The notes under the pieces: model-generated
Databases searched by the model: none
Told to the model about the DNA's origin: nothing
The model's input: only the letters and a program-made list of their open reading frames with translations
Part shown: positions 51 to 58,075 of the stretch, piece after piece
Layout of the letters: each line of letters opens with the position of its first letter
How positions within the stretch are numbered: the stretch's first letter is position 1
Assembly: GCA_041499215.1 (NCBI GenBank)
Contig: JBGQJV010000001.1
Location: forward strand, 1-63,484
Direction: 5' to 3'
Source of the DNA: Gemmatimonadota bacterium
Lineage (GTDB): Bacteria; Gemmatimonadota; Gemmatimonadetes; Gemmatimonadales; GWC2-71-9
DNA length: 63,484 nucleotides
Made by a program: the position numbers and the translations under genes

Positions 51-233
51 ATGGCGCTCAGGCACAAGCTGCTCGCCATCGGCATGATCGCCTTCTCGAT
101 CGGAACCACGGTCGTCTTCTTCATGCCGCACCTCGCCGGCAAGGTGACGCTGAGCACGCTGGGACTCGGCTGGATCGTCGTCCTGCTCCGGATTCCCACG
201 CTGAAGCGGTTATGCCCGCACAGCGAGAAGTGA
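51..233 (+). CDS. small hypothetical membrane protein (60 aa)
   Basis: ORF track. Two hydrophobic stretches (LLAIGMIAFSIGTTVVFF, LGLGWIVVLL). No family recognised. Confidence 0.35.
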   Translation: MALRHKLLAIGMIAFSIGTTVVFFMPHLAGKVTLSTLGLGWIVVLLRIPTLKRLCPHSEK

Positions 234-308
234 GGAATGAGGCGTGAGAAGTGAGGAGTGAGAAGTGAGAAGGGAGAAGCGTGTCAGGAGTGAGGAGTAA
301 GGGGTGAG
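231..308. repeat. degenerate tandem heptamer array, unit GTGAGRA (about 11 units)
   Basis: Read directly: gtgagga atgaggc gtgagaa gtgagga gtgagaa gtgagaa gggagaa ... It fills the spacer between convergent ORFs. The same unit recurs at 58003-58075. Confidence 0.85.
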
Positions 309-338
309 CTGATCGGCTCAGGGCTGACGGCAGCAGAC

Positions 339-950
339 TCACACACCGAGGAGTCGTCGCGTCGCGGCGGCGACGGCAGGCGGAAGCCGCGACCAGTCAC
401 TGCGGACCAGGCGCATCGCGGCTGGATCGGTGGTGTCAACCACGGTCGCGGCCCGGTCACAGGGGGAGTAGTCCGCCCGGTAGCGGCGCTGGGCCGGAAA
501 GTACCGGGCCTCGATCCGGTGAAGCACATCCTCGCGGGTGCGGCCCCGGCCGGTGTCGCGGATCAGGATGCGGCGGGCCGCCTCCTCGAACTCGACCTCG
601 AGGTAGATCAGGGGGCTCACGGAGAACACCGGGAGCCGCAAGGTGAAGACCCCCTCCAGCACGACGGTTGTTCCCGCCGCCGCGATGACATCCACCTCCG
701 CCTGCAGGGCCGCCAGGTCGAAATAGCCGCTCCAGTAGACCTCGGCCTCTCCGCTCGGATCGTCCCAGCTCACCGAAGAGCGGAAGTCGTCCACATGCAC
801 CAGGGCCACGGGGGCGCCTCCGGTGCGCATGGTGTCCACCAGCCGCTCAGCGAAGGTGGTCTTGCCGCTGCCGTCGATCCCGTCCACCAGCACCACCGAG
901 GATTCAGGCGGCCGGCCAGTAGCGCCTGGCAAGGGCACAGAGGGCCTCAT
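339..950 (-). CDS. P-loop NTPase, uridine/nucleoside-kinase-like
   Basis: Walker A VVLVDGIDGSGKTTFAERL. Start placed at the internal Met (MRPSVPL), because the ORF to 1028 would run far into the upstream gene. Start uncertain. Confidence 0.55.
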   Translation of the reverse strand: MRPSVPLPGATGRPPESSVVLVDGIDGSGKTTFAERLVDTMRTGGAPVALVHVDDFRSSVSWDDPSGEAEVYWSGYFDLAALQAEVDVIAAAGTTVVLEGVFTLRLPVFSVSPLIYLEVEFEEAARRILIRDTGRGRTREDVLHRIEARYFPAQRRYRADYSPCDRAATVVDTTDPAAMRLVRSDWSRLPPAVAAATRRLLGV

Positions 951-1743
951 GGCAGCGACCGTTGGAGGAGACGATTCCGCGATGATGCACCGGGTCGGAT
1001 CCGCCGTAGAAGAGCGGTCGCCCATCAACGTCCGTGATTCGCCCGCCGGCCTCGGTAATGATCAGGCCCGGGGCGCAGGAATCCCAGGCCTTCTCCCGGT
1101 CGTGCAGGCAGAGGGTCGCGTCGAGCTCCCCCGCGGCCACCGCCGTCAGCTTCAGGGAGGCGCCCTGCGGCACCGCGTGCCGGCCGAGCGGCGCCTCCGC
1201 CAGCAGCCGGGAGAGACGCGCTCCCGGGGCGCGACGACTCATTCCAACCCGGAATTCATCCAGAGTGGAACCGCCCGATACCGCGATCGATTGTCGACCC
1301 GCCCCATCCTGCCGGAACGCACCCGCGCCTGCGACCGCGTCGAACAGGATGCCGGTCGCGGGCTGGTGGACTACCGCCACCACCGGCCGGTCCGCAACCA
1401 GCAGCGCGATGTGAACGGCAAACTCGGGGGAACCGGCGGCGAAGTCCCGCGTCCCATCCAGCGGATCCACCAGCCAGAGGCGACTGCCGGTCTCCGGCAC
1501 GGGATCGGGCAATTCCTCACTCAGGACCCGGTCACCCGGAAAGGCACCGCGGAGATGGCTCTGGATGATACGGTCCGCTTCCAGATCCAGCCCCGTGACC
1601 GGCGAGCCATCTCCCTTGACCGACGTCCGATGGGTCCGGCCGGCCTCGGGGCCGAGCAGGGCGCCGGCCGCCAGGGCGGCGCCACGGGCGGCCGCGAGTG
1701 CGGCCGCGAGATCAGAGGATGTAACGCCGGAGATCGTCATCAT
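904..1743 (-). CDS. inositol monophosphatase / CysQ-family phosphatase
   Basis: Family motifs WLVDPLDGTRDF and WDSCAPGLIITEAGG. Start taken at MMTISG; the ORF extends to 1785 but that part overlaps the hslU 3' end. Confidence 0.75.
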   Translation of the reverse strand: MMTISGVTSSDLAAALAAARGAALAAGALLGPEAGRTHRTSVKGDGSPVTGLDLEADRIIQSHLRGAFPGDRVLSEELPDPVPETGSRLWLVDPLDGTRDFAAGSPEFAVHIALLVADRPVVAVVHQPATGILFDAVAGAGAFRQDGAGRQSIAVSGGSTLDEFRVGMSRRAPGARLSRLLAEAPLGRHAVPQGASLKLTAVAAGELDATLCLHDREKAWDSCAPGLIITEAGGRITDVDGRPLFYGGSDPVHHRGIVSSNGRCHEALCALARRYWPAA

Positions 1744-4304: not shown

Positions 4305-4393
4305 GGATGGCCGCTGGTCTATCCGACGCTTAGTGCAGACTCGGACGCACAGACCGCCCGGAGCCCCCGACCCCGACCCCCGACACCCAGCCC

Positions 4394-4927
4394 CTACAAC
4401 TCCAGAATCGTGAGATTCCGGTTGGTAAACACGCAGATTTCCGCCGCGATCTCCAGGGAACGCTGCACGATGTCTCGCGCCGACAGGTCGGGGAGCGAGG
4501 CCAGTGCCCTCGCCGCGGCGAGGGCGTAGTTGCCGCCGGAGCCGACCGCCAGGATTCCGTCATCGGGTTCGATCAGCTCTCCACCCCCGGAGAGCAGGTA
4601 GGTGTGCTCCACGTCGCTCACCACCAGCAGCGCCTCCAGCCGACGGAGCACCCGGTCGCTGCGCCAGTCCTTGGCAAGCTCCACCGCGGCCCGGCCCAGA
4701 TTGCCGGGATGGCGCTCCAGCTTCTCCTCGAACTTCTCGTATAGCGTGATGGCATCCGCCACGGACCCGGCGAACCCGGCCAGCACCTTCCCCCCCTTGA
4801 GGGTGCGCACCTTGGTGGCGTTGGCCTTCACGATGGTGTCACCGATGCTGACCTGACCGTCGCCGCCAAGAGCGACGCGACCATTCTTGCGGACGGCCAG
4901 GATGGTGGTGCCGTGGTATTGCTGCAA
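4394..4927 (-). CDS. hslV: ATP-dependent protease subunit HslV
   Basis: [23 protein letters not shown] and [14 protein letters not shown]. Start proposed at TTG (L19 of the ORF), preceded by GGGAGGCAGG. This gives MQQYHGTTI, which resembles the Bacillus ClpQ short propeptide. Confidence 0.9.
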
Positions 4928-5769: not shown

Positions 5770-5940
5770 CCGACCGAAGTCCCAGTCCCCCCCGGTGTGA
5801 CGGTCCAGGAATTCGGTGAACGCTTCCAGGTCGCGGCGATAGGCCTTGACCGTATGACCCGAGACTTGGCGCTCCTTCTCGAGGTGCTCGAGGAAGGCGG
5901 CGACCTCAGGACGGACGGGCGGACGGGCGGACCGTTTCGG

Positions 5941-7407
5941 TCATAGACTCAGGCACCTGAGCCACTCCGCGAAGTCTGCCCGGGCCCGCTCTACCAGCAG
6001 CCGCTTCTTCATCTCCTTGCCCTTCTGACCGCCTGACCGCCTGGCCGCTTCCGGTCCCAGCACTTCGATGAGTCCCCAGTTTGCGTTCATGGGCTGGAAG
6101 TGCATAGGGTCGGCCTCTCGAAGATAGCGGTACAGCGCCCCGAGCATCGTGGTCGGCGGTGGGACGGTCACCGACTTCCCCGCCAGCCGCCGCGCGAGGT
6201 TGATCCCCGCCAGCAGCCCGGTGCCGAGCGACTCGGTGTAGCCCTCCACTCCAGTGAGCTGACCGGCGAAGAACAGAGTCTCGTCGTCCCGCGCAGTGAG
6301 GCCGGGGCCGAGACACGCGGGGCTGTTGATGTAACTGTTGCGATGAATGCTGCCATGACGCAGGAAATCCGCCCCTTCCAGTCCGGGAATCATCCCGAAG
6401 ACCCGTTTCTGCTCCGGGATGCGGAGGCGGGTCTGGAACCCCACCAGGTTCCACATCTGCCCCGCCCGGTCTTCCCGGCGAAGCTGCACCACTGCCCAGG
6501 GCTCCCGGCCGGACCTCGGATCCGGCAGGCCGACCGGTTTCATCGGCCCGAAGCGCAGGGTCTCGGGTCCCCGCCGGGCCATCTCTTCCACCGGCAGGCA
6601 GCCTTCGAAGTAGGGCACCTGGTCGAACTCATGCGCGGTGAACTGGTCGGCGGTCGTGAGCGCCGCGATGAACGCCTCGTACTCCTCGCGGGTCATGGGC
6701 GCGTTGAGGTAGTCGTCGCCCTCGCCCTTGCCATACCGCGAGAGGGCATAGAGCCGGGAGTGGTCCAGCGACTCATCGCTGACGATCGGCGCGATGGCGT
6801 CGTAGAAGGCCAGCGCGGTAACAGCGGCCGAGCCGGGCGGGGGCGAAAGTGCGGTCGCCGGTGTGGCCCCTGAGGGCACTGTGCCGGCCGGTGGGATTGG
6901 CGGGGCTTGGCCACCGGCCGGCCCAGTGCCCGAGCCCGAGTCGCCGATGCGGGCGAGGATTGCACTCGCCAGCGCCGGAGAGGTGAGCGGCCCCGTGGCC
7001 ACCACCCCCGGAGAAGGAAGGTCGACGACCTCACCGCGCTCGAGCGTAATGCGGGGATGGCTGGTCAGTTGGGCATGCACTCGCCCGGAAAAAACCGCCC
7101 GGTCCACCGCGAGGGCGGCCCCCGCCGGGACCCGGGCCTCGTCCGCCACGGGCAGCAGCAGACTCCCGAGCGCGCGCAACTCGGCTTTGAGCAGGCCGTG
7201 GGCGTTGGAAAGTTCGGTGGACTTGAAGGAGTTGCTGCAGACCAGCTCGGCCAGCTGATCGGTCTGGTGCGCGGCGGTTCGGACAGTGGGGCGCATCTCC
7301 CGGAGCCGCACCCGGACCCCCCGCTCTGCCAGGGCCCAGGCTGCTTCCGAGCCTGCGAGCCCCCCGCCCACCACCGTGACGACCGGGGTGCGGGAGGCCG
7401 GGCTCAC
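5941..7407 (-). CDS. trmFO: methylenetetrahydrofolate--tRNA-(uracil-5-)-methyltransferase TrmFO
   Basis: FAD motif VVGGGLAGSEAAWALA, CSNSFKS, FFAGQLTGVEGYTES. 4-nt overlap with the topA stop. Confidence 0.93.
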   Translation of the reverse strand: MSPASRTPVVTVVGGGLAGSEAAWALAERGVRVRLREMRPTVRTAAHQTDQLAELVCSNSFKSTELSNAHGLLKAELRALGSLLLPVADEARVPAGAALAVDRAVFSGRVHAQLTSHPRITLERGEVVDLPSPGVVATGPLTSPALASAILARIGDSGSGTGPAGGQAPPIPPAGTVPSGATPATALSPPPGSAAVTALAFYDAIAPIVSDESLDHSRLYALSRYGKGEGDDYLNAPMTREEYEAFIAALTTADQFTAHEFDQVPYFEGCLPVEEMARRGPETLRFGPMKPVGLPDPRSGREPWAVVQLRREDRAGQMWNLVGFQTRLRIPEQKRVFGMIPGLEGADFLRHGSIHRNSYINSPACLGPGLTARDDETLFFAGQLTGVEGYTESLGTGLLAGINLARRLAGKSVTVPPPTTMLGALYRYLREADPMHFQPMNANWGLIEVLGPEAARRSGGQKGKEMKKRLLVERARADFAEWLRCLSL

Positions 7408-11795: not shown

Positions 11796-11850
11796 AGCTA
11801 AGAGCTATGAGCTGAGGCTGATAGCTCATAGCCCCCGCAGCTCATAGCCC
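11796..11850. repeat. degenerate tandem heptamer array, unit AGCTCAT-like
   Basis: agctatg agctgag gctgat agctcat agccccc gcagctcat agccc, in the aroC/pilQ spacer. Confidence 0.6.
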
Positions 11851-11873
11851 TTGGCCCTGGCCCGAAACACGAA

Positions 11874-23739: not shown

Positions 23740-23745
23740 GTTTAA

Positions 23746-24921
23746 GTGAACGGGAAGGCTGGGAACATGGGCGGACAGGCGGACAGGCGGACGGGCGGGC
23801 CGTCACCTGCAGCATCACGTGGCGAGAGCACCCGGATTGCTCACTGTCCGCCGGTCCGCCGGTCCGCCGGTCCGCCCTGGTCGGTTTACATCCTCCGCTG
23901 TGCCGATGGGTCGCTCTATACCGGCATCGCCCGGGACCCGGAGCGGCGCCTGGCGGAGCACAATAGTGCCGGTGGGGCGGTGTACACCCGAGCGCGCCGC
24001 CCGGTGACATTGGTTCACCAGGAGCCGGCCCGGGACCGTTCCGCGGCGCTTCGACGCGAATGGGCCATCAAGCAACTGAGCCGGACGGAGAAGTTGGAGC
24101 TGATCATGGGGAAGAAGGCGACAAAGGCGACCACCGCCACGAGGCTACGAGGCCACAAGGCGACAAGGCGACAAGCCGACGCGGAACGCGGAACGCAGAA
24201 CACGGAACGGTTTTCCTCCATCCGCCCCACCGCGATCAGGTTCCTCGCCCAGCTCAAGCGCCACAATACCCGGCCGTGGTTCGAGGCCAATCGCCCGGTG
24301 TATGAGGCGGAGATCCGCAATCCGCTCAAATCCCTGGTGGAAGAGGTGGATGTCCACCTGGCGCGAATCGCGCCCGAGATCACGGGCGACCCCCGGCGCT
24401 CGATCTTTCGCATCCACCGGGATGTGCGGTTCTCCCGGGACAAGTCTCCATACAAGACCCATGCTGCCTGCTGGTTCTATCATCATGACGCGGGCCGGGG
24501 AGTGGGAGGAGAGGCTCAGGGAGGAGCGGGATTCTACTTCCACTTCTCCCCCACCGAGAGCCTGCTCGGCGCCGGCATCTGGATGCCGCCGCGCGACTCG
24601 CTCATGCGGCTGCGCCAGGCGTTGGTGGACGACCTGGAGAGCTTCGAGGGGATCGTCCTGAGCAGGCAATTCCAGCGGCGCTTCGGCAAGTTGGATGAGG
24701 AAGCACTGCTCAAGCGCACCCCCAGGGGCTTCGCGGAGGACCATCCCGCGGCGCCGTGGCTCTTGTATCGGTCGTTCACCGTGGGTCGGGATCTCCGTCG
24801 GAAGGAGTTGCATTCGCCGGCCCTGCCACGCACTCTGGCCCGGGAATTCGAGGCGCTCACGCCCTTCGTGCGGTGGCTCAATGCTGCCCTGGGCTTCCGG
24901 GCCCTCGACCGGCGGGTATAG
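23746..24921 (+). CDS. single ORF joining a GIY-YIG (UPF0213-like) nuclease domain and a DUF2461 (TIGR02453-like) domain
   Basis: N-part WSVYILRCADGSLYTGIARDPERRLAEHN...TEKLELI. C-part from Met121 (24106): FLAQLKRHNTRPWFEANRPVYEAEIRNPL. There is no stop between them. The linker is encoded by tandem repeats. The real start is uncertain. Confidence 0.6.
   Translation: MNGKAGNMGGQADRRTGGPSPAASRGESTRIAHCPPVRRSAGPPWSVYILRCADGSLYTGIARDPERRLAEHNSAGGAVYTRARRPVTLVHQEPARDRSAALRREWAIKQLSRTEKLELIMGKKATKATTATRLRGHKATRRQADAERGTQNTERFSSIRPTAIRFLAQLKRHNTRPWFEANRPVYEAEIRNPLKSLVEEVDVHLARIAPEITGDPRRSIFRIHRDVRFSRDKSPYKTHAACWFYHHDAGRGVGGEAQGGAGFYFHFSPTESLLGAGIWMPPRDSLMRLRQALVDDLESFEGIVLSRQFQRRFGKLDEEALLKRTPRGFAEDHPAAPWLLYRSFTVGRDLRRKELHSPALPRTLAREFEALTPFVRWLNAALGFRALDRRV
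23769..23877. repeat. inverted pair of tandem 7-8 nt arrays (GGCGGAC x4 ... GTCCGCC x4)
   Basis: ggcggacaggcggacaggcggacgggcgggc at about 23770-23800, and gtccgccggtccgccggtccgccggtccgcc at about 23846-23877. The units are reverse complements. Confidence 0.8.
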
Positions 24922-24947
24922 CCCGCGGCAAGCCGCCTAGGCCTCGC

Positions 24948-25337: not shown

Positions 25338-25352
25338 GGATGGGACTCTGAA

Positions 25353-25457
25353 GGTTCCGCGTTCCGCGTTCCCCGTTCCGCGTTTGAACCACGCGACGCG
25401 CCGGGTTCAGGCGGCTCCCTCCGGGTCAACGAAGGCGGAACTCGGAACGCGGAACCG
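25353..25457. repeat. inverted pair of heptamer arrays (GTTCCGC ... GCGGAAC)
   Basis: ggttccgcgttccgcgttccccgttccgcg, then about 50 nt, then ggcggaactcggaacgcggaaccg, in a convergent spacer. Confidence 0.8.
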
Positions 25458-25464
25458 TTCAGCC

Positions 25465-29760: not shown

Positions 29761-30057
29761 ATGCCCGTCTCAGGCACCGCAATTGCCAGCGCGCTCAACG
29801 CGCTCAGACTGTACACCCGGCGGGTCGATCAGGCGGCCGAGCGGATTGCCTCCGCGGGGTTGTTCGACGTCACGACCGAGCCCGCGCCGAGCAGTGACCC
29901 TGCCACACCCCCCGCTGCGGCACCGGAGCCGGTGGATCTTGGCGGCGCGATGGTCGACATGATGATTGCCCAGCGGGCATTCGCCGCGCAGCTCAGGGTG
30001 CTGCGGACCGCGGACGAAATGCTCAAGGAGACCGTGGAGCAGACCAGGGCGAAGTAA
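29761..30057 (+). CDS. small protein with FlgC/rod-protein-like N- and C-terminal motifs (98 aa)
   Basis: N-terminal AIASALNALRLYTRRVDQAAERIAS. C-terminal VDLGGAMVDMMIAQRAFAAQLRVLRTADEMLKETV resembles the flagellar rod C-terminal signature. GGAG lies 6 nt upstream of the ATG. Confidence 0.5.
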   Translation: MPVSGTAIASALNALRLYTRRVDQAAERIASAGLFDVTTEPAPSSDPATPPAAAPEPVDLGGAMVDMMIAQRAFAAQLRVLRTADEMLKETVEQTRAK

Positions 30058-30168
30058 GGCGGAAAAGGCGAGAAGGGCGGAAGGACGGGAGTCTCCTCCC
30101 GCCGTTCCGCCCTTTCCGCCCTCCCGCCCTCCCGCCTTGCCGCCTTGCCGCCTTGCCGCCTTGCCGCC
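30058..30168. repeat. repeat-built imperfect hairpin filling a convergent spacer (GGCGGAA-type arm, TTCCGCC-type arm, then GCCGCCTT x4)
   Basis: About 25-nt arms with 21/25 complementarity by hand alignment, around the loop tctc. Followed by ccttgccgccttgccgccttgccgccttgccgcc. Confidence 0.75.
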
Positions 30169-30555
30169 TTACTCCACTATCACCTCCCCAGTCATGAACG
30201 GATGCGGCTCACAGTGGTAGACGAAGGTCCCCGGCACATCGAAGGTGACCGTATAGGTTACCCCCGGCTCGAGCGGGTCCGAGCTCCATTTCCCGCCGTC
30301 AGCGGTGGAGGTATGGGCCGGAGTCCCGGCGGGCTCACAGTTGACCCAGGTCACCTTCCCTCCCGCCCGCACCCGCACAGGAGTGGGCGCGAAGGCGAAC
30401 CCGCCGATCGCAACCACCGTCGAGCCGAACTGGCTCGGGCTGAGAATCACGCTACAGGAGCCGGAGGAAGGCCCGGTCGCGTTGCTGCGCTCCGACACGC
30501 AGCCCGCGGCTGCGAGGACGAGGCCGAGGAGTCCGACGACCAGAGTGGCCCTCAT
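30169..30555 (-). CDS. small cupredoxin lipoprotein (amicyanin/pseudoazurin-like)
   Basis: Lipobox LVLAAAGC. Type-1 Cu ligand pattern H (AHTST) ... C-E-P-H-P-F-M. Start at MRATLVV (Met57 of the ORF). ATGA overlap with the upstream gene. Confidence 0.8.
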   Translation of the reverse strand: MRATLVVGLLGLVLAAAGCVSERSNATGPSSGSCSVILSPSQFGSTVVAIGGFAFAPTPVRVRAGGKVTWVNCEPAGTPAHTSTADGGKWSSDPLEPGVTYTVTFDVPGTFVYHCEPHPFMTGEVIVE

Positions 30556-33948: not shown

Positions 33949-34301
33949 CGGCCCCTCGAGATACAGGATGGTCCGGGGAGTTGCGAATAGACATTCATGA
34001 GGCAGGCGCAAGGGATCTCTCTCCCGCCCGCATCACGGCGGAGGAGTTCGACGCAACCAGCGTTCCGAGGAGAGCCCAGCACGGGATTTGGGTCCGGAAA
34101 CCGAGGGCAACTGCCTGCCACACCATGCACTTAGTGAGAGGGCGGCGGCGCAGTAAGCCGGTGAAGAACCGCCTCGCAACTGCTGCGCAGCGGTACGCCT
34201 GTACCGAATCGAGATGGAAAGGGATGACACTCCCAATAGGAAAGCGGGGAACGGGCATGGTACCCCATTCCCCGCCGCAGGGACGCCTGCTCTCCTCGGA
34301 G

Positions 34302-34904: not shown

Positions 34905-34906
34905 CG

Positions 34907-35875: not shown

Positions 35876-35916
35876 GATTCGCTGCTCCTGCGCTGCTTTG
35901 TTGTGTTGCCCTGTTT

Positions 35917-36100
35917 GGCCGTTCGCCGTTGGCCGTTCGCCGTTCGCCGTTGGCCGTTGGCCGTTGGCCGTTGGCGCTTGCTCTCTCGGGTTCGAGCCTG
36001 TCCACCTCCGACTGCTTCCCTCTCACTACTTGCTTGTGCCACTGCTTACTGCCTACTGCTTACTGGCTCTCTGCTCACTGCTTACTTCTCACTGTCACTG
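35917..36100. repeat. two adjacent heptamer arrays (GCCGTTS x8, then CTGCTTA-like x about 10)
   Basis: gccgttc gccgttg gccgttc gccgttc gccgttg x4, then ctgctta ctgccta ctgctta ctggctc tctgctc actgctta cttctca ctgtcactg. Located between marR and the dioxygenase. Confidence 0.85.
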
Positions 36101-36556
36101 CCCGCCCCGGGCCGCCAGGCCGAGTTTCCGGCACAGCCGGCTCAGTTCACGCTGTTCCGCCTGGGTGAGCGCACCCAGCAGCCCTCGCACCCGCGCCGCA
36201 TGCTCGGGGAACGCCCGGGCTATCAGTTCCTGCCCCTTGTCGCTCAACCGGACGAGGTAGGCCCGGCGATCATCGGGATTGGTGTCTCGCCGGACCAGCC
36301 CGCTCCGCTCGAGGTTGTCGATGACCGTGGTGAGATTGCTGCCGCTCACCAACAGCTTCTCGCACAGCCGCGCCTGGGGCATCGGCCCCAGGTGAAGCAA
36401 CGCCTCCAGCACTCCGAACTGGCTCTCCGTGAGGCCATGGGCCTTCGCAAGCGGAGGGTTGAGCCGGGCGGACAGGCTGTTCACCGCCCGGCGGAGCTTC
36501 ACGAAGCTTCCCAGAGCCAGGAGGGCGGCGGGGTCGCGGCGGAGATTGGCAGTCAT
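36095..36556 (-). CDS. MarR family transcriptional regulator (MhqR-like by context)
   Basis: Winged-helix region LTESQFGVLEALLHLGPMPQARLCEKLLVSGSNLTTVIDNLERSGLVRR...DRRA. Start at MTANLRRD (Met20 of the ORF). Confidence 0.8.
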   Translation of the reverse strand: MTANLRRDPAALLALGSFVKLRRAVNSLSARLNPPLAKAHGLTESQFGVLEALLHLGPMPQARLCEKLLVSGSNLTTVIDNLERSGLVRRDTNPDDRRAYLVRLSDKGQELIARAFPEHAARVRGLLGALTQAEQRELSRLCRKLGLAARGGQ

Positions 36557-36575
36557 ATCGTCCGATGTCGCATTG

Positions 36576-36587
36576 TTCGACGTCGAA
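36576..36587. promoter_or_regulatory. perfect 12-bp palindrome, candidate MarR operator
   Basis: TTCGACGTCGAA, about 20 nt upstream of the marR start, in an AT-richer patch (cattgttcgacgtcgaatataatg). Confidence 0.45.
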
Positions 36588-36609
36588 TATAATGAGCCAG
36601 CAGACCAGG

Positions 36610-37311: not shown

Positions 37312-37502
37312 GAGTCACACATCAAGGCGCGGGGCTCGAGACTGGCCGAGGGAGAGACACTGGAAGGTGACTGAGGAGTTGCTCGATTCGAAGGGGGAGC
37401 CAGCCGGAAGGCCTGCCCGGGGTCACGCGGTGCATGGGGGCAGCGGCGGTCCGGCGCTACCGAGGCGGCGCGCCGTCGGCAGGCCTGGTTGCGAGCGCCC
37501 GC

Positions 37503-40334
37503 TCAGGCGGCGTCGGACAGGGAGCCGCTGGCGGGTGCCGGGAGCTCCCGGCGGGGCTGCGCAAGGAGCCGCGCGATGTCGGGTGCCGGCAGCGGCGGCG
37601 CGAAGAAATACCCCTGGCCCATGCTGCACCCGAGGAAGCGCAGCGCAGCACACTGCTCGGGCGTCTCCACGCCCTCGGCCACGGTACGGAGCCGCAGGGT
37701 GTCCCCCAGGCCGATGATGGCCCGGGCAAGCGCGGACTTGTCGACCCCGGCGTTCACGTCCTCGACGAACGGACGCGCGATCTTGATGAGGTCAATCGGG
37801 AAACGCTGCAGGTAGCTGAGCGACGAGTAGCCGGTGCCGAAGTCGTCGATCGCGAGCTGGACCCCCAGCTCCTTCAGGGCCTTGAGCTGCTCGAGCACCG
37901 AGCCGGTGGTCTGCATCAGGACGCTCTCGGTGATCTCCAGCACTACCGCCTCGGGAGCCACCCCGGTTTCGGTGAGCGCCATCCGGGTCTCGTTCACCAG
38001 GTCGAGCTCGGTGAGCTGGCGGCCGGAGATGTTGACCGACACCGTCAGCGGGGTCTCGGGGAAGGCGGTGCGCCAGACCTGGGCCTGGCGGCAGGCCTCG
38101 CGGAGGACCCAGCGCCCCATCCGCACGATGAGTCCGGTCTCCTCGGCCAGCGGCACGAAGTGCTGCGGCAGCAGGTGGCCGAACTGGGGGTGCTCCCAGC
38201 GCACCAACGCTTCGATCCCCTCGATCCGGCCGGTCTTGAGGGAGAAGATCGGCTGGTACGCCAGGTAGAGTTCCTCCCCTTCGATCGCCCCGCGAAGCGC
38301 CACCTCCATCTCGCCCCGATGCTTCACGTCGGTGTACATGTGGGCCTGGTAGGTCTCGCTCCGGCCCTTGCCACGCCGCTTGGCGGTATACATCGCCATG
38401 TCGGCGTTCCGCAGCAGGTCGTCGGCGGAGTCCTCCGGACCGGCAGTGGCGACGCCGACGCTCATCTTCACATGCACCTCGTTGCCGCCCAGGACGAACG
38501 GGCGGGACATCGCCTCACTCAAGCGATCGACTACGGCGGTGACACCCTCGGCGTCTGCGCCGTCTTCGATCAGCACGGCGAACTCGTCGCCACCCAGCCG
38601 GGACACGGTGTCTCCGGCCCGGGCACAGATCCGGAACCGCTCGGCCGCGACCACCAGCAGCCGGTCGCCCTCACTGTGGCCCAGGCTGTCGTTGACCTTC
38701 TTGAAGTCATCCAGGTCGAGATACAGCACACTGATCGGCTCGCCCTGTCGCCGGGCGCGGGCCAGGGCGTGGCTCACACGATCCCGGAACAGGGCGCGGT
38801 TGGCCAGGCCGGTGAGCGGATCGTGGAACGCCTGGTGGGTCAGCTGCTGCTCCAACCGCTTCCGCTCGCTCACGTCGCGGGTGTTGAGCACGATACCGCG
38901 CACCGTCGGATCGTGCAGCAGGTTGGTGGCAATGATCTCGGCATGAAGCGAGGATCCGTCGGGCTGGCGGAAGCGCCACTCCACCGGCGGAGAAACCCCG
39001 ACATTCTCGGAGGCATCCCGGAGGTAGCTGCGGGCGCGCTCCCGGTCTTCGGGATCCAGCAGGTCGACGAAGCCGCGACCCACCAGCGGCACCGGGTCGT
39101 AGCGCAGCACCCGAGCCACCGAGGGACTGACGAAGCGGATGGTCCCGTTCGGCTTGATCACCACGATCACATCCGACGAATTCTGCACCAGCGAGCGGAA
39201 CCGGGCCTCGTTCGCCCGGGCGGCGGTCTCGGCGAGCAGACGGACGTTCTGCCGAACCGCGATCACCTGGCGGGCAACGACCAGCACGGTCATCGCCACC
39301 GCCCCTACCACCAGGCCGCTGATCGGATCGGCCCAGGGCTTGACGGCGGCCGCCAGCAGCAGCCCGTAGGTGGATGCGATGGCCAGATAAGGCAGCGGAC
39401 TCAGTTGCTGCGAGCGGGTGGGCGATTCGTGCTGCCCGGCGTTGCGCGGCACCGGACGCCGGTAGTAGAGCTCGGCGCTGGCGGTCGCAAGGAGATAGAA
39501 CAGGAGGTAGACCGCATCGACCCAGGCAGCGGTGCGTTCCCCGGTCTCGATCAGCACCAGGTTGAAGGTCAGGTCGGCGACGATGCTGACCAGCACCGAC
39601 GCCACCAGCAGGCGGAAGGCGACCCGATTCTCGTCCAGCGGCCCGCGCAGGAGCACCGTCGTGATGCCGAGCAGAACGAGCACGTTGGCCAGCGGATAGG
39701 CGAAGGCGAGCAGCGTGACGGACACACTGCCACCCGGGGCGGCCGTGGAGGGCCGCACGTTGAAGTACCAGATGGCTACCGCCGCGCCGACCAGTACCAG
39801 CGCCGCATCGAGGACGAATTTCCACTTCTCCAGCCGGATACGCCTCGCAAGCGGAAACGACAACAGCGAGGCAAGCATCAGGAAGCTGTCGGTCAGGTAG
39901 AACGCGTCCGCCCAGGACACCGGGGGGCTCTCGCCCAGCGCCACGATGTGGTAGATGGAGATCGCGTTGCCAGCGAGGACCGCGAAGGAGCCAAGGCCAA
40001 GAAGGGCCAGAGCCTGCCGAACCCCCGGATCGAGCGCCGGCCTCCGCGAGGCGAGCAGAAACAGAACCCCGGTGAGGAGATTCAGGGGCATGAACCCCGC
40101 GGTCCCGACGATCTCGCGGGTCGCCGGCGATCCCCAACCGGCGCGCTCCCAGACGAGGTACGTGAGCCCGTACAGGGCCATCAGACCAGTGATCGTGCCG
40201 ACCGGGAGGGACCCTTTGGGGTCTCCCGGACCGGAGTTCAGGCCTTGATCCACTGTCTGGTTACCCACGCTGCTCCCGAGCCATTGCGGTTCGCTGGTGT
40301 TAGCGCGTTCAGGCCCGACTGGGCCTGTTTTCAC
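37503..40334 (-). CDS. membrane-anchored PAS-GGDEF-EAL c-di-GMP signalling protein
   Basis: About 10 N-terminal TM helices, a PAS region, RLGGDEFAVLI, EALVRWEHP, DDFGTGYSSL. The GTG start is uncertain. Confidence 0.85.
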   Translation of the reverse strand: MKTGPVGPERANTSEPQWLGSSVGNQTVDQGLNSGPGDPKGSLPVGTITGLMALYGLTYLVWERAGWGSPATREIVGTAGFMPLNLLTGVLFLLASRRPALDPGVRQALALLGLGSFAVLAGNAISIYHIVALGESPPVSWADAFYLTDSFLMLASLLSFPLARRIRLEKWKFVLDAALVLVGAAVAIWYFNVRPSTAAPGGSVSVTLLAFAYPLANVLVLLGITTVLLRGPLDENRVAFRLLVASVLVSIVADLTFNLVLIETGERTAAWVDAVYLLFYLLATASAELYYRRPVPRNAGQHESPTRSQQLSPLPYLAIASTYGLLLAAAVKPWADPISGLVVGAVAMTVLVVARQVIAVRQNVRLLAETAARANEARFRSLVQNSSDVIVVIKPNGTIRFVSPSVARVLRYDPVPLVGRGFVDLLDPEDRERARSYLRDASENVGVSPPVEWRFRQPDGSSLHAEIIATNLLHDPTVRGIVLNTRDVSERKRLEQQLTHQAFHDPLTGLANRALFRDRVSHALARARRQGEPISVLYLDLDDFKKVNDSLGHSEGDRLLVVAAERFRICARAGDTVSRLGGDEFAVLIEDGADAEGVTAVVDRLSEAMSRPFVLGGNEVHVKMSVGVATAGPEDSADDLLRNADMAMYTAKRRGKGRSETYQAHMYTDVKHRGEMEVALRGAIEGEELYLAYQPIFSLKTGRIEGIEALVRWEHPQFGHLLPQHFVPLAEETGLIVRMGRWVLREACRQAQVWRTAFPETPLTVSVNISGRQLTELDLVNETRMALTETGVAPEAVVLEITESVLMQTTGSVLEQLKALKELGVQLAIDDFGTGYSSLSYLQRFPIDLIKIARPFVEDVNAGVDKSALARAIIGLGDTLRLRTVAEGVETPEQCAALRFLGCSMGQGYFFAPPLPAPDIARLLAQPRRELPAPASGSLSDAA

Positions 40335-40536
40335 AAATCATTACACAACAACAACTTGACACTTATGACCCGGGCGATTCGGGGCAGGAGTGCAGATCGA
40401 AACAGGGAGGTTGCAAGGCCGGTGCCGTTCAGCTCACGAAGGGAGATCGGGTTTGAAATGCGGTTTGCGACAAGTGCACCTGGGAATGGCAACTGGCCGG
40501 GCAGCAGCAGGGGTCCAGCAGGCTGACACCGCCCGG

Positions 40537-40852
40537 CTAGTCGTCGTCCCAATCACGTTCGACACGGGCCTCACGTCTGTGAGACCGCCAGAACCTCCGC
40601 TCCTGTGCACGATTCTCCGCGTAGCACTGGGCGACATACAGAACCATCCTCGCCCGCACCCGCACCCGCGCGCCGGTGAGATCCACGAATACGATCCGGC
40701 CGTCGGCGCCGGCGGCAAGCAACTCCCGCTCGGCGGAGCGCGCCATCGCGGCGCTGAGGTACCAGTTGGCCTCCTGGGTGCAGAGAACGAAGTAGTCCCC
40801 GCGCCTGCGCTTCAGGCCGGGCGCCGTCTTCTCTTTCGCGTACCTGTGTCAT
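40537..40852 (-). pseudogene. small ORF with an apparent frame problem just after its start (unknown family)
   Basis: ATG at 40852 with GAGGG 4 nt upstream opens an Arg-rich, junk-like frame. The adjacent frame (stop at 40537) reads the protein-like HRYAKEKTAPGLKRRRGDYFVLCTQEANWYLSAAMARSAERELLAAGADGRIVFVDLTG..., but has no canonical start before Met at 40746. Confidence 0.3.
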
Positions 40853-40888
40853 CCTGCCCTCGTAAGGTTGGCCGCATGATGGCGCGGC

Positions 40889-41053
40889 TCAATTCGATAC
40901 CACCTCCTGCTCCACCCGCGGCCGGACCGGCGGCCTCCCCGCGGCAGACCGGAGCAGCAGCGGGTACACCGCGCGCTCCGCCCGTCGCAGAGCGGGGCTC
41001 GCCTGATAGCGGTCCTCCGGCCGGGCGAGCCAGAGAGTCCGAGGATCCAGCAT
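40889..41053 (-). CDS. small hypothetical protein (54 aa)
   Basis: Consensus SD AAGGAGG 5 nt upstream of the ATG. High third-position GC. MLDPRTLWLARPEDRYQASPALRRAERAVYPLLL... No family recognised. Confidence 0.45.
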   Translation of the reverse strand: MLDPRTLWLARPEDRYQASPALRRAERAVYPLLLRSAAGRPPVRPRVEQEVVSN

Positions 41054-41098
41054 CCGGGCCTCCTTCGAGCCATCCCGCGTGAGAGACCCAGCGCGACG

Positions 41099-41119
41099 GG
41101 ACGTGTGTGCCACACGTCC
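41099..41119. promoter_or_regulatory. perfect 9-3-9 palindrome upstream of the 54-aa ORF
   Basis: GGACGTGTG-tgc-CACACGTCC, about 45-65 nt upstream of the ATG at 41053. Confidence 0.4.
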
Positions 41120-41196
41120 TTGGAGTCGCGTTCCACCGTGCGCGGGCTCCACGCCCGCCGGCCGGTGTCATCTCACTCTGGACAGCCCCGAAAAAC

Positions 41197-41238
41197 GGAA
41201 TCGCCCCACCTGTCGGCCTGCACAGGTGGGGCGATTCC
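41197..41238 (-). terminator. strong intrinsic terminator
   Basis: Perfect 17-bp stem GGAATCGCCCCACCTGT / ACAGGTGGGGCGATTCC with an 8-nt loop, followed on the minus strand by GTTTTTCGGGG. Confidence 0.8.
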
Positions 41239-41262
41239 GCCGCCGGTCGGTTCCCAGAGGTG

Positions 41263-41451
41263 TTATCCCCCGAGTCGCGCCGGACTCCCGTGCAGGCTAC
41301 TCACTTCCAAACCATCACTCACGCGCAGCTTCAATCCATCCTCGCCGTAGGTGCCACCGGAGAATCCTGAACGCCCCCCGGCAGACCAAAGGGGTGCGAC
41401 CGGAGCAATCCGGCGCTGGGCGTGCAGGTAGTCGTCAGGACGCAGTTGCAT
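41263..41451 (-). CDS. 62-codon ORF of unknown function (could instead be part of a non-coding RNA)
   Basis: GGAG 3 nt upstream of the ATG. MQLRPDDYLHAQRRIAPVAPLWSAGGRSGFSGGTYGEDGLKLRVSDGLEVSSLHGSPARLGG. Third-position GC is lower than in neighbouring genes. Confidence 0.3.
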   Translation of the reverse strand: MQLRPDDYLHAQRRIAPVAPLWSAGGRSGFSGGTYGEDGLKLRVSDGLEVSSLHGSPARLGG

Positions 41452-41571
41452 CGGCTCCTCAGGTCCAGAAAAAGGAAAGTCGCGCCACCGTGGAGGTGAT
41501 CGGTGCTCCCACACCGACACCGGCAGACCCGGAAGGGCCGGCTCATTCCAACGGGACGCGACTCCCAGAGG
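41452..41571 (-). promoter_or_regulatory. structured 5' leader with attenuator-like features
   Basis: Mutually exclusive helices TCGGTG/CACCGA and CACCG/CGGTG. Loop CACCTCC. Long-range stem GGGAGTCGCG/CGCGACTTTCC followed by TTTTT. Confidence 0.4.
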
Positions 41572-41577
41572 GGAGAC

Positions 41578-41606
41578 ATTTTACGAATCGGGCGTTGATC
41601 TGTCAA
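41578..41606 (-). promoter_or_regulatory. near-consensus sigma70 promoter
   Basis: Minus strand TTGACA-17 nt-TAAAAT. Confidence 0.65.
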
Positions 41607-41638
41607 TACTGAAGTTCCGAGTTCCAAGTTCCGAGTAA

Positions 41639-41660
41639 GGGCCGCACAGCCGTGCGGCCC
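41639..41660 (-). terminator. hairpin downstream of the 41677-42414 gene
   Basis: GGGCCGCAC-agcc-GTGCGGCCC, about 17 nt after the stop. Followed by a GTTCCGA heptamer array (41614-41635). Confidence 0.5.
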
Positions 41661-41676
41661 CTACACTGGAACTGGC

Positions 41677-42414
41677 TCAATGCCCGGCGGTGTCGACCGA
41701 GAGCGAGAATCGGCCGTCACCCGCGTCCAGACGGACAACCTCGCGACCGTTTTTGTCGCGCACCCTGATGCTGGCTCCGGTGCTGTCGGCGAACAGCCGG
41801 AGCACCGCCCTGCCCAGCCCGTCATTCACCTTGATGTTGGCCCCGTGGTGATCGGCCAGGAGCCGCACCAGCTCCCCGCCGTCGCCCCTGGCGTTGATCC
41901 GCACCGCACCGCCAAGATCGGCCGTGGCCTCGAAGGCGTCGCCGTGCCGCATGTCCGCGGCGACCGAGGGAACAACCATGATCGGCCGGTCGATATCGCC
42001 CGGGGTGAAGCGGGCGCGACCCAGCTCCACCAGATTGCCGGTCAGACCCTCGGCGCAGGTGAAGCCGCTGTCGAAATCGAAGTCACGCTGCCGCTCGGGC
42101 AGCAGCACGCAGCCCTGCAGCTGGCGTCCGGCACTGGCATCGGCAAGCTCGACGGTCAGGTTCACCTCCGGCAGTGCACCCGACTCGTCGCGGCGAATCG
42201 TGGCCCGCCGGACGGTACCCAGCCGCTCGCCGTCCAGCCTGAACGGGATATCCGACGCGGCGCTCGCGACACGGGAGAAGGCGCTCGAGTGGAGCGCGGT
42301 GGTGATGGCGTCAGACGCGGCGGCCTTGGCTTGCCGGCCGACCGTAACCAACATCATGCCGACAACGAACACGCCGAGGGCACCAAGCCCGATCCTGGTC
42401 CAGAGGCTTCGCAT
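41677..42414 (-). CDS. membrane-anchored hypothetical protein with three C-terminal ~22-aa repeats
   Basis: GGAGG SD. N-terminal TM segment (IGLGALGVFVVGMMLV). Repeats GAVRINARGDGGELVRLLADHH / GANIKVNDGLGRAVLRLFADST / GASIRVRDKNGREVVRLDAGDG. Start at MRSLWTR (Met34 of the ORF). Confidence 0.55.
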   Translation of the reverse strand: MRSLWTRIGLGALGVFVVGMMLVTVGRQAKAAASDAITTALHSSAFSRVASAASDIPFRLDGERLGTVRRATIRRDESGALPEVNLTVELADASAGRQLQGCVLLPERQRDFDFDSGFTCAEGLTGNLVELGRARFTPGDIDRPIMVVPSVAADMRHGDAFEATADLGGAVRINARGDGGELVRLLADHHGANIKVNDGLGRAVLRLFADSTGASIRVRDKNGREVVRLDAGDGRFSLSVDTAGH

Positions 42415-45153: not shown

Positions 45154-45339
45154 CCGTGGGTGAGCAGGTCTGGAAGATACTCCGGGCAGGCGGGAGCAGA
45201 GGGGACCGGGGCGAATCGCGGTCCGTCAGGCAGGAGTTCCGAGTTCAAAGTTCCGGGCGCGACGCAACCCCTCCCAATCTGAAACTCGGGACTCTGCCCT
45301 CGGAATTCGGCACCTGACACCGATCCCATCCGCGCCTGG

Positions 45340-56182: not shown

Positions 56183-56284
56183 GGCCGCGACATCAGTTCC
56201 GAGTTGCAGCGGAAACCTTGATTCCCGGGGCAAGCGTGGTGCCGGAGGGCCCCCAACTCGGAACGCGGCACCCGGAACGCGGAA

Positions 56285-56953
56285 CTACTGCACCGAGACC
56301 CTGTCTCGAAGCCGGGCCAGGGTAGCCGGCCCGATCCCGGGCACCCGGACCAAGCTGTCTACCACCGGAAAAGGCCCGTACTTCTGGCGAAAGGCCACGA
56401 TTCGGCCTGCCAGGGCGGGGCCGATCTGGGGAAGCCGCTCCAGCTCCGCCGCCGTGGCCAGATTCAGGTTGAGTATCGGCAGGTCGTTTCGAGTCCTCAG
56501 TTCCGAGTTCCGAGTTGAAGCGGGCTCGGCCGGAGCGGGGAGCGGGATGGGGGGCTGGGAAGTGGGCACGGCAGAGAACCGGACATTGTCGCGGATCGCG
56601 GCGAGGAGCCCTGTCCCGACGCCGGGAACCCGATCCAGACCCTCGAGGCTGCCGAATGGCCCCCGGGACTCGCGGTCGGCCACGATGACCTTGGCGAACC
56701 GAAGTCCGACCCGCGGCAGCCGGGAGATTTCAAGCGCGGAGGCGCGGTCCAGATCGATCCGCTCGCCGGGAGCCAGCGGGCGGGCCAGGGCCATGCTCGA
56801 ATCACGGTGGGCGAGGGAGGAGCTGCCCGGCGGCGCGGGGAGGAGGGCAACCTGGCCCGGCGGAGCTCCGGGGCGGGCCAGCAGGACCCGGATCGCCTGT
56901 CCGCCGACGGCGAGCCCGAGAAGCAGAAGGATGGCACGGCGCTCGGGGGCCAT
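56285..56953 (-). CDS. comEA: ComEA-like protein with two helix-hairpin-helix DNA-binding modules
   Basis: N-terminal TM segment. IDLDRASALEISRLPRVGLRFAKVIV, and a second copy LNLATAAELERLPQIGPALAGRIV...VPGIGPATLARL. Start at MAPERRA (Met13 of the ORF). Confidence 0.65.
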   Translation of the reverse strand: MAPERRAILLLLGLAVGGQAIRVLLARPGAPPGQVALLPAPPGSSSLAHRDSSMALARPLAPGERIDLDRASALEISRLPRVGLRFAKVIVADRESRGPFGSLEGLDRVPGVGTGLLAAIRDNVRFSAVPTSQPPIPLPAPAEPASTRNSELRTRNDLPILNLNLATAAELERLPQIGPALAGRIVAFRQKYGPFPVVDSLVRVPGIGPATLARLRDRVSVQ

Positions 56954-57100
56954 GGACGAGCATAGTGCTCGGCTCGCGAGGTGGCCCAATCATTCCGACG
57001 CGAACAGAACCGTGAGGACGCGCGGTGTCTTGAGTTCCAAGTTCCGGGTTTACGGCAGTTGAGGCGAAACTCAGCACCGGGAACCGAGAACTGGGTGGGT

Positions 57101-58000
57101 CTAGTGTCTCCGCACCAGCGCCGTGGCAACGTCTCCCACGCTCTGCAGGCTCTGGGCGCTCACCTTGTCGATGGTGTCGTCCGGAGTGTGCCAGTAGGGG
57201 TAGTCGAAATCCACCACGTCGATGGCGCGGATGCCGACCTTCTGCAGCTCCACATGGTCGTCGGTAAGGGTGTGCTTGGGGCTGGCCAGGAAGCTGCCTG
57301 CGTGGCCCGCTTCCCGGGCGACGGTCCACACCAGCTCCACCACCTCAGGCGCGCCGAGCAGCGAGTTGCCTTCCTGGTAGATCTGCTGGTCCTTGTCGGC
57401 CACCATGTCGAACAGCACCGCGTACAGCGGCACCGGGCCAGGCGGCCGATGCTGGGCGTAGTAGCGCGACCCGATCAGCACATCCGCCGGCGGAGTCGCG
57501 CTGAAATCGCCGTAGTCCTCGCCATCCACGAACAGCAGATCGACCCCCACCTTGGCGGGGCTCCGCTTCAGCACGTCTGCCACCCCGAGCAGCACCGCGA
57601 CGCCCGAGGCGCCGTCGTTGGCACCGGGGACGGGTCTGATCCGGTCTCCCTTGTTGTTAGGGCCATCGGAGATCGGGCGGGTGTCCCAGTGGGCCATGAA
57701 GAGCACCCGCTCCGAGGCCCGCGGATTGAACCGGGCAATGACGTTCACCAGCGGCAGGGTATCTCCCCGCGCGGTGACGTGCTTCCACGACTGTATGATG
57801 ACCGTGTCCGCGCGGGCCCGCGCCATTGAATCGAGCCAGGCCGCCATCCGGGCATGTGCGTCCGTGCCCGGTATGCGGAACCCGAAGGCCACCTGCTGTT
57901 CGAGGTAGTGGAACGCGGACTGCCCGTCGAACTCACGGGGAGGCGGTGAGGAGTCGCAGGCGGCGAGGATGGTCGTGGTGAGGAGGATTGTCAGGCGCAT
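57101..58000 (-). CDS. M28-family lipoprotein, glutaminyl-cyclase-like
   Basis: Lipobox TILAACDS. FMAHWDTRP...GANDGASGVAVLLGVADVL...LFVDGEDYG...YWHTPDDT. Start at MRLTILL (Met53 of the ORF). Confidence 0.65.
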   Translation of the reverse strand: MRLTILLTTTILAACDSSPPPREFDGQSAFHYLEQQVAFGFRIPGTDAHARMAAWLDSMARARADTVIIQSWKHVTARGDTLPLVNVIARFNPRASERVLFMAHWDTRPISDGPNNKGDRIRPVPGANDGASGVAVLLGVADVLKRSPAKVGVDLLFVDGEDYGDFSATPPADVLIGSRYYAQHRPPGPVPLYAVLFDMVADKDQQIYQEGNSLLGAPEVVELVWTVAREAGHAGSFLASPKHTLTDDHVELQKVGIRAIDVVDFDYPYWHTPDDTIDKVSAQSLQSVGDVATALVRRH

Positions 58001-58002
58001 GG

Positions 58003-58075
58003 GGCGGTGAGCAGTGAGGAATGAGGAATGAGGAGTGAGGCGTGAGGCGTGAGAAGTGAGGAGTGAGCGAGGGAT
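58003..58075. repeat. degenerate tandem heptamer array, unit GTGAGGA (about 9 units)
   Basis: gtgagca gtgagga atgagga atgagga gtgaggc gtgaggc gtgagaa gtgagga gtgagcg. Same family as 231-308. Confidence 0.85.

Follow-up and report, generated by a model that had tools for sequence, protein, structure and literature searches.

Tandem heptanucleotide repeats of the STRR kind were reportedly described by Mazel et al. in 1990 in the cyanobacteria Calothrix, Anabaena and Nostoc. Heptamer repeats have been known in bacteria since that year and their over-representation was shown in 2007; their origin and function have not been established. In Xanthomonas, approximately 186 GGGAATC arrays per genome were found, mostly intergenic and typically with about four units, and at about 70 loci per genome the arrays faced each other as convergent inverted pairs with the potential for stem-loops (Rehm et al., 2015; PMC4692102). 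Most of these arrays were kept between the same genes in sister species with variation in length and sequence, few lay between divergent genes, and a regulatory role was not detected (PMC4692102). GGGGA(C/T)T heptamers of Nostoc were also described there, as were STRR sequences, which were mostly one-directional with few paired copies. The over-representation of heptamers and the polymerase-geometry idea of slippage are given in the same paper as cited from Mrazek, Guo and Shah (2007). TAACTGA repeats were reported from Beggiatoaceae, Cyanobacteria and Bacteroidetes (MacGregor, 2015; PMC4679880). An enrichment of short tandem repeats of 6-9 nt is noted in the searched text of PMC12699852, in which Gemmatimonadota were not found, and Borg and other tandem repeats are reported to create disordered protein regions (PMC9879509). 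A literature search found no paper reporting such repeats in Gemmatimonadota. In this work, arrays of 7-nt and 8-nt units were analysed in a 63,484-nt stretch of DNA (hereafter the window; contig JBGQJV010000001.1, assembly GCA_041499215.1; 68% G+C) from an uncultured soil Gemmatimonadota bacterium. They are interpreted as long simple-sequence repeats with units of 7 nt, less often 8 nt, of the STRR and Xanthomonas GGGAATC kind, which would be driven by slippage, survive only at permissive sites and have their arms mirrored via a hairpin; this reading is given about an even chance of being correct.

Census and authenticity of the arrays

Arrays were detected by Tandem Repeats Finder (TRF) and direct sequence reading, and overlapping calls were merged. 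The first-pass annotation of the window had claimed that many spacers were built from 7-nt or 8-nt units in a few families, and this was confirmed. Ten arrays of period 7 and eight of period 8 were obtained (18 in total), whereas 30 dinucleotide shuffles averaged 5.1 arrays, with at most 10, and these were low-scoring. GTTCCGNGTTCC, with at most one mismatch, occurred 18 times in the window against 1.5 expected. According to a codon-bias gene call checked with Pfam, 11.4% of the window was non-coding, and this part held 14 of the 19 arrays of period 7, 8 or 21 (p = 4e-10). The arrays occupied 11.5% of the non-coding bases, and those with a period that was a multiple of 3 were all in coding sequence. 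A period census was carried out over 1.67 Mb, comprising the window and related loci, mostly from Gemmatimonadota. Shuffles yielded 0 arrays of period 7 and 0.7 of period 8, compared with 57 and 29 in the real sequence; periods 5, 11 and 13 were at chance level, and among the periods that were not multiples of 3 a large excess occurred at 7 and 8 only. Moreover, arrays were present in 10.7% of convergent spacers and in 3.2% of tandem or divergent ones, which is an approximately 3-fold difference (p = 0.02).

The same arrays were present in two independent assemblies, namely an NCBI contig from a metagenome-assembled genome (MAG) that was 99.7% identical to the window (L001, GCA_041487015.1) and a JGI metagenome contig that was 99.9% identical (L002). 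Both encoded the window's chorismate synthase identically. In a sister species, identical arrays were carried by three independent assemblies. TRF or direct reading recovered essentially all of the loci listed in the first-pass annotation, with two of them, 4363-4388 and 26135-26162, found to be near chance. The former belongs to a CCCCGA/CCCCCGA run (4363..4398; TRF score 32-42) 6 nt downstream of the hslV stop, and the latter is CCACTGAG x2.5 (TRF score 40), 30 nt upstream of a gene identified by Pfam as an hsp15-like S4-domain gene. A third weak locus, possibly due to chance, was CTGACCGC x3 (6025..6048, minus strand; TRF score 41), which adds 24 nt in frame to the C-terminal tail of TrmFO, whose Pfam GIDA match ends at residue 411 of 488. 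These three loci, together with a single-unit difference at 5911 that could be a short-read collapse, are what an explanation by chance low-complexity sequence or assembly artefacts could draw on. For the main arrays, this explanation has almost no probability left and is refuted by the large excess over shuffles, the agreement of independent assemblies and the conservation at orthologous sites. The main arrays are genuine, and neither chance nor assembly artefacts account for them.

The units were contiguous without interposed spacers, which agrees with the earlier view that the loci were not CRISPR, a class defined by 23-50-nt repeats with unique spacers. As in the STRR type, tandem head-to-tail 7-nt units in at least three copies were found by TRF. 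A scan of the whole window against Rfam gave zero matches at the gathering score.

Mirrored arms and hairpins

The arms of the arrays expand in a mirrored and even nested way, and the units drift in blocks. In the window and all related loci, 48 of the 114 arrays (approximately 40%) had a reverse-complement partner within 250 bp, compared with 7 for a decoy made of reversed units. The first-pass description of single arrays applied to some loci, which were one-directional, whereas many others were inverted pairs of arrays. The pair at 23769..23877 (plus strand), in the divergent spacer between pilS and a GIY-YIG–DUF2461 gene, consisted of (GGCGGACA)x3.6, a 39-nt centre and (TGTCCGCC)x3.9. Its inverted arms lay at 23769-23803 and 23843-23877 (by TRF and direct reading, GGCGGACA at 23770-98 and GTCCGCCG at 23846-76), and its single strand folded with -81.2 kcal/mol (z = -6.7). 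On its right side, the pair directly adjoins the conserved GIY-YIG domain, whose N-terminal tail may be encoded by this arm. At 25353..25456 (plus strand), (GTTCCGC)x4.4 and (GCGGAAC)x3.6 were separated by a 47-52-nt centre (arms 25353-25378 and 25431-25456; TRF 25354-84 and 25431-55; -60.6 kcal/mol, z = -3.8), and the pair filled the convergent spacer between the DUF983 stop (25337) and the DUF2378 stop (25465). The pair at 30056..30170 (plus strand) took up the entire convergent spacer between the stops of a flagellar-rod-like gene (30057) and a cupredoxin gene (30169). It was made of (GGCGGAAR)n, a 4-nt loop and (YTTCCGCC / CCGCCTTG)x8.9, with arms at 30058-30091 and 30096-30120 and beyond, and its fold reached -59.9 kcal/mol (z = -4.4).

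At 11796-11850, where an array had been listed, a palindrome with 7-nt periodicity (AGCTMAK / ATGAGCT; 11796..11855, minus strand) was found rather than a clean array. Its inverted arms (11797-11817 and 11835-11855) were 86% complementary, and it formed a hairpin between the pilQ terminator and aroC (-36.1 kcal/mol, z = -4.2). Three other listed loci, at 45236-45310, 56195-56285 and 57032-57093, turned out to be degenerate mirrored pairs (at 45.2, 56.2 and 57.0 kb), all on the minus strand and with weaker folds. The first (45234..45310; TRF 45234-55; z = -1.1) was a GAGTTCC / CTCGGAA pair between a CoA-transferase stop (45340) and a Ser/Thr kinase start. The second (56195..56285; z = -1.3) was AGTTCCGAGTT ... 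(GGAACGC)x4.4 (TRF 56255-85), ending at the stop of a comEA-like gene (56285) upstream of pilB. The third (57032..57093; z = -2.6) was a GAGTTCC / GGGAACC pair 8 nt downstream of the stop of an M28 peptidase gene (57101). Downstream of the gene ending at 41677, (AGTTCCG)x3.4 (TRF 41613-36) stood together with the hairpin GGGCCGCAC..GTGCGGCCC, the outer stem being GGAAC/GTTCC (41613..41675, minus strand; -40.6 kcal/mol, z = -5.6). Directly downstream of this element, a near-consensus sigma-70-like promoter (TTGACA, 17 nt, TAAAAT; 41578-41606, minus strand) was observed. It leads into 620 nt without a confident gene (41054-41676), in which a small RNA or an unannotated small open reading frame (ORF) is possible.

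The nested form was found in a metagenome contig of apparently lower GC, as judged by eye (L100, 3268-3440; equal to L101, 5644-5803). The order was (GGTGACA)4 (GATTGCG)5 loop (CGCAATC)5 (TGTCACC)4, that is, A-B-loop-B'-A' with 4.3, 4.7, 4.6 and 3.9 units, and it filled the spacer, beginning 2 nt beyond a stop codon and reaching the ribosome-binding site of the next gene. This nesting speaks for coordinated arms; without such coordination, four separate expansions would have had to reach the same size.

The mirrored pairs could be selected hairpins that serve as bidirectional factor-assisted terminators, 3'-end protectors or insulators, the tandem structure reflecting stem lengthening; this is possible although rather doubtful. 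The 3-fold preference for convergent spacers (p = 0.02), the three convergent spacers of the window that are filled with arrays, and the very stable folds (-60 to -81 kcal/mol, z to -6.7) argue for it. Moreover, one stem was kept in three lineages with one compensatory change, and arrays adjoin canonical-looking terminator stems at 41637-41662 and in a relative (L088). However, a divergent promoter region (23769-23877) and the inside of an operon junction likewise carry pairs, half of all arrays run in one direction only and lack structure, and relatives at 70% identity manage without arrays. Intrinsic terminators in particular were rejected, since stems are present without a T-tract and a terminator scan of 22001-42000 reported no array.

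Gene ends, linkers and inheritance

The arrays are confined to frame-tolerant sites, which are disordered linkers and spacers, above all spacers that directly follow a stop codon or separate convergent genes. The intergenic placement proposed earlier was correct for the 14 non-coding arrays, whereas those at 24109-24210 and 56499-56516 are in frame inside genes. The proposal that arrays abut stop or start codons was borne out at several loci. The array at 225..308 (GTGAGGA/GTGAGAA, approximately 11 units, plus strand; TRF and sequence), which had been placed from 231 onward, begins inside a stop codon, since the TGA of the DUF454 gene (231-233) lies within its first unit. It fills the convergent spacer between that gene and a kinase-like gene ending at 339 (Pfam), and its RNA fold was unstructured (z = -1.1). 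The pair at 30058-30170 spans from 1 nt past one stop into the stop of the convergent gene, and the 25354/25455 pair is 17 and 10 nt from two stops. Between a MarR gene and a glyoxalase-family gene, two arrays were found on the minus strand. The CTGCTTA array (GCAGTRA on the mRNA strand; approximately 9-12 degenerate units; 36011..36101, TRF 36040-36101) overlaps the MarR stop codon at 36095, and the GCCGTTS array (CAACGGC on the mRNA strand; 8.7 units; 35915..35975; TRF score 101) sits 40 nt upstream of the glyoxalase-family start. The GTGAGGA, GCCGTTS and CTGCTTA arrays were one-directional and unstructured by fold.

A second GTGAGGA array (UCCUCAC on the mRNA strand; 8.7 units; 58003..58075, plus strand; TRF 58007-58067, score 80; fold unstructured, z = +0.5) ends 3-7 nt upstream of the true start of the M28 peptidase (58000), with the TRF call at 58007 being 7 nt from the start codon. 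As had been suspected, the ORF at 57101-58156 is spuriously extended by this array, which lacks minus-strand stops. The true first residue of the peptidase is M53 (position 58000), at the head of a lipoprotein signal peptide (MRLTILLTTTILAAC), and the Pfam domain begins at residue 138. Such positions would suit units that are multimerised binding sites of a sequence-specific RNA-binding protein (S1, CsrA or cold-shock) or of a nucleoid protein. For this idea, which we judge unlikely, it can be said that a few unit families recur at many loci, that some arrays end a few nucleotides before starts with no Shine-Dalgarno sequence between (58003-58075), and that binding was argued for the TAACTGA repeats of Beggiatoaceae (MacGregor, 2015; PMC4679880). 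In the window, seven loci carried GTTCCGR units, two carried GTGAGGA and three carried GGCGGAC-like units. The idea is opposed by the presence of at least nine unrelated units within one 63-kb window, by the use of both strands and all spacer types, and by units that are wholly different between lineages and drift at orthologous sites. Three related roles were considered and rejected. The CsrA-type GGA motif is contained in 4 of 9 units by our own count, about as expected from base composition; Rho utilisation via the C-rich strand would need an orientation to transcription that is inconsistent across loci; and for a DNA-uptake-sequence role of GTTCCG, single units were not enriched outside arrays.

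At the trmFO/xerC junction (5905-5946, minus strand; L001 11752-11800), one 8-nt unit decides the presence of the xerC start codon. The array there is CGGACGGG with approximately 3 units (5908..5933, minus strand; TRF 5912-5932). In L001, an ATG overlapping the trmFO TGA opens a 313-aa XerC (MTETVRPSARPPVRPEVAAFL...), whereas the window has one CGGACGGG unit fewer, which puts the ATG out of frame. The xerC frame then continues straight on from the trmFO stop, and the first ATG, GTG or TTG available would give a truncated form of 252 aa. This difference points to one of three things: a phase-variation-like switch, pseudogenisation, or the collapse of a repeat in assembly. The window trmFO stop TGA (5941-5943) is in the xerC frame, and read-through would give a TrmFO–XerC fusion, probably incidentally. 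Arrays can lengthen ORFs, hide true starts and, as at xerC, shift a start codon by one unit; gene calls near such arrays in Gemmatimonadota MAGs need care.

The two coding arrays had been overlooked as such, together with the mirrored-pair architecture and the published heptamer parallels in Xanthomonas, Nostoc and the cyanobacterial STRR. Both encode linkers, with a total length that is a multiple of 3 and no stop codon arising. At 24109..24210 (plus strand; 102 nt; TRF 24115-24209), (AAGGCGAC)x8 followed by (GCGGAAC)x4.4 encodes the interdomain linker of the GIY-YIG–DUF2461 fusion, which is predicted to be disordered; in the AlphaFold (AF2) model, the predicted local distance difference test (pLDDT) score fell under 50 for residues 135-152 and exceeded 90 in both domains. 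By alignment count, this linker has 8-15 residues in distant homologs and 32-67, rich in Arg, Thr and Ala, in the window and close relatives, among which its length varies. At 56499..56516 (minus strand), (AGTTCCG)x2.6 encodes part (..RNSELRTRN..) of the linker between two HHH_3 domains of the ComEA-like protein (56285-56989, minus strand), and this Pro-rich linker thus contains an in-frame GTTCCGA array. Besides this protein, the window holds a type IV pilus cluster (pilMNOQ, pilSR, pilBTC), and the full pilus set with a ComEA-like protein makes natural competence plausible. The remaining gene content is that of an ordinary chromosome (hslUV, xerC, trmFO, topA, aroK, aroC, comEA, cupredoxins, a GGDEF-EAL protein, peptidases), and the closest named homologs of the window proteins are from Gemmatimonadales.

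The arrays change by whole units between near-identical strains and persist for long at orthologous sites with drift in unit and copy number. The comparison of orthologous spacers that had been proposed in the first-pass annotation revealed such expansion and contraction in L001 and L003. Between the window and L001 (99.7% over 17 kb), the arrays differed only at 5911, where L001 has an additional 8-nt unit; the remaining indels (6865-6879 and 3473) were outside arrays. In L003-L005, whose GIY-YIG–DUF2461 protein is 81% identical, the upstream, linker and post-DUF983 arrays were at the same sites with the same units, and the post-DUF983 element of L003 had one GTTCCGC unit fewer than the window. 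At 78% identity (L006), the upstream and linker arrays were kept and the downstream element was only a degenerate remnant; at 70% (L007), all these arrays were gone and the spacers were short. The upstream stem of the fusion gene was kept in three lineages, including L003 and L006, with one G-C to C-G compensatory change.

The MarR-glyoxalase junction measures 9 nt in L006 and contains 219 nt of two arrays in the window. A scan of metagenomes for orthologs of the glyoxalase gene gave L088 as the sole informative close relative (glyoxalase-family protein 80% identical). Its junction shows this arrangement of two arrays as well, with related units that have drifted in blocks (GCGGTGG > GCGGTGA > ACAGTGA; ACAGCCG > ACGGCTA > ACGGCCA), and a spacer with one CTCGGAAC unit in the window has three in L088. 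Gradients of unit variants along the array were observed in L088 at 57-250. At 225-276 in the window, the match of the GTGAGGA array was 87% at period 21 and 70% at period 7. This 21-nt higher-order period and the gradients are consistent with multi-unit slippage or unequal exchange. In a survey of 80 Gemmatimonadota genome loci, period-7/8 arrays were found in many lineages with units of their own, often mirrored. Examples were GGGTGTA x18.7 with CCTACTC, GGTTGGT x11 with AACTACC, and CGATAGA with ATCGTCT; some relatives carried G3-type GGGTGTA or GGGGCTA arrays.

The fusion gene itself (GIY-YIG of UPF0213 type–DUF2461; 23767..24921, plus strand; Pfam), which is conserved as a fusion across Gemmatimonadota, has arrays upstream and in the linker and another pair after the next downstream gene (DUF983). 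In L008-L026 and L029 (around position 10000), arrays were likewise found upstream, in the linker and downstream of it, the units differing by lineage, and in L021 the GIY-YIG-coding segment was bracketed by (GGGACGGC)5 and its reverse complement. A dedicated enzyme, comparable with the REPIN/RAYT system, could make or spread the arrays, with this protein as the candidate; we regard this as very unlikely. The GIY-YIG domain is related to the structure-specific nuclease SLX1, and in 20 fused-gene loci 18 of 23 arrays were within 1.5 kb of the gene (p = 1e-7 per base). A dispersed composite element in L062, described below, also speaks for it. However, the gene is single-copy and syntenic and simply offers three permissive sites (a divergent upstream spacer, the linker and an often-convergent downstream spacer), and the excess under a per-site null model was small (11 observed against 7.4 expected, p = 0.05; all loci, 11 against 6.5, p = 0.014). 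The loci with DUF2461 alone showed almost no excess (0.76 vs 0.52 arrays per 10 kb, raw rates). When DUF2461 was compared with the PDB by sequence and fold, the matches were limited to a B. subtilis protein (2a8e) that is uncharacterised and a weak resemblance to PprA, neither being an informative structural match, and a literature search on its function found nothing. Since the association is strong per base but reaches only p of about 0.01-0.05 per permissive site, it was not built upon. The narrower proposal by analogy, that the mirrored arrays are the substrate or product of a nuclease system dedicated to them, the Gemmatimonadota GIY-YIG(UPF0213/SLX1-like)–DUF2461 fusion, as REPINs are for RAYT, would be still slightly less probable; if true, it would provide the first enzyme behind the long-unexplained bacterial heptamer repeats.

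Mobile elements were also considered. Six aligned loci of the GTTCCG family shared only their units, with unrelated centres and no target-site duplications or conserved cores, and an origin as miniature inverted-repeat transposable elements (MITE) was rejected. Pfam scans of approximately 48 ORFs, which are nearly all gene calls of the window, detected no transposase, integrase or RAYT except XerC. The earlier statement that the arrays are not classic REP or MITE elements agrees with these results. In L062 (13180-19520), from a Gemmatimonadaceae MAG, (GTCTGACA)3 arrays were followed by a conserved hairpin core (CCCGC..CCGCTGCGCGG..TCTGACAGCGGG). This composite recurs at least three times within 6 kb, plus inverted copies, and looks like a dispersed REP- or MITE-like element around an 8-mer array.

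Origin of the arrays and known systems

In the proposed mechanism, the arrays would lengthen and shorten through replication slippage, in which units of approximately 7 nt would be favoured for reasons related to the polymerase, and expansion would continue until sequence under selection is met. The position of arrays beside codons would then arise because expansion stops there, and the arms would stay mirrored because they pair as a hairpin. Quasi-palindrome correction by intramolecular template switching is established in E. coli, and template switching within the hairpin by this route, or else selection on the stem, may produce the mirroring. Most arrays would have no sequence-specific function. 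As by-products, they may yield stable 3'-end stem-loops that could block read-through or RNA decay, unstructured spacers before starts, new disordered linkers and occasional frame switches at gene starts.

Several observations weigh against this slippage-based origin. Slippage in situ fails to explain the same units recurring at many loci; together with the L062 composite, this recurrence indicates some dispersal or sequence preference, at least in some lineages. The GTCTGACA arrays of L062, within a repeated composite with a conserved non-array core, look mobile. Furthermore, the persistence of hairpins, the one compensatory change and the 3-fold convergent preference could reflect selection for function.

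REP units are imperfect palindromes of 20-40 nt, and RAYT genes are flanked by their own elements. REP and REPIN sequences resemble the present loci in being intergenic, hairpin-forming inverted doublets in dispersed families. They differ in that the arms here are tandem 7/8-mers with unrelated centres and the 63-kb window has no Y1 transposase. Borg repeats within genes reportedly keep the frame via unit lengths divisible by 3. Unlike these, the 7-nt and 8-nt units here keep it only through the total array length; both kinds occur not only in spacers but also within reading frames, to which they contribute disordered segments. The TAACTGA repeats are likewise intergenic heptamers, often a few nucleotides upstream of starts that lack a ribosome-binding site (RBS). 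They consist of a single unit across phyla with almost no inverted copies, whereas the units here are lineage-specific and often mirrored. The heptamer over-representation of prokaryotes, as far as the 2007 work is represented in the citing paper, is the same 7-nt intergenic excess given as general statistics with no analysis of mirroring.

The STRR sequences are similar in having several heptamer families per genome, head-to-tail, mainly non-coding and lineage-restricted, in genomes that are low in GC, unlike the 68% G+C window. To our knowledge, neither octamers nor mirrored nesting are described for STRR. The heptamers of Xanthomonas and Nostoc, for which no function was found, share the 7-nt unit, the usual number of about four units, the intergenic position, the rarity between divergent genes, the inverted pairs and the orthologous retention. 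Convergent inverted pairs as in Xanthomonas were present in the window, and a dominant G3 unit was not. Xanthomonas has one dominant G-rich, G-quadruplex-capable unit, whereas at least nine units, including 8-mers and mostly without G-triplets, are found here in a different phylum, with in-frame linker copies documented. The heptamer and octamer arrays described here are an unusually rich case, in a new phylum, of a known class whose mechanism is unexplained. Many unit families occur side by side, 8-mers accompany 7-mers, arrays are mirrored and nested, copies lie in frame in linkers, and orthologous sites are caught at different stages (absent, single unit, long array). The questions of why the unit is 7 nt and how both arms expand together become testable by comparative genomics and simple genetics.

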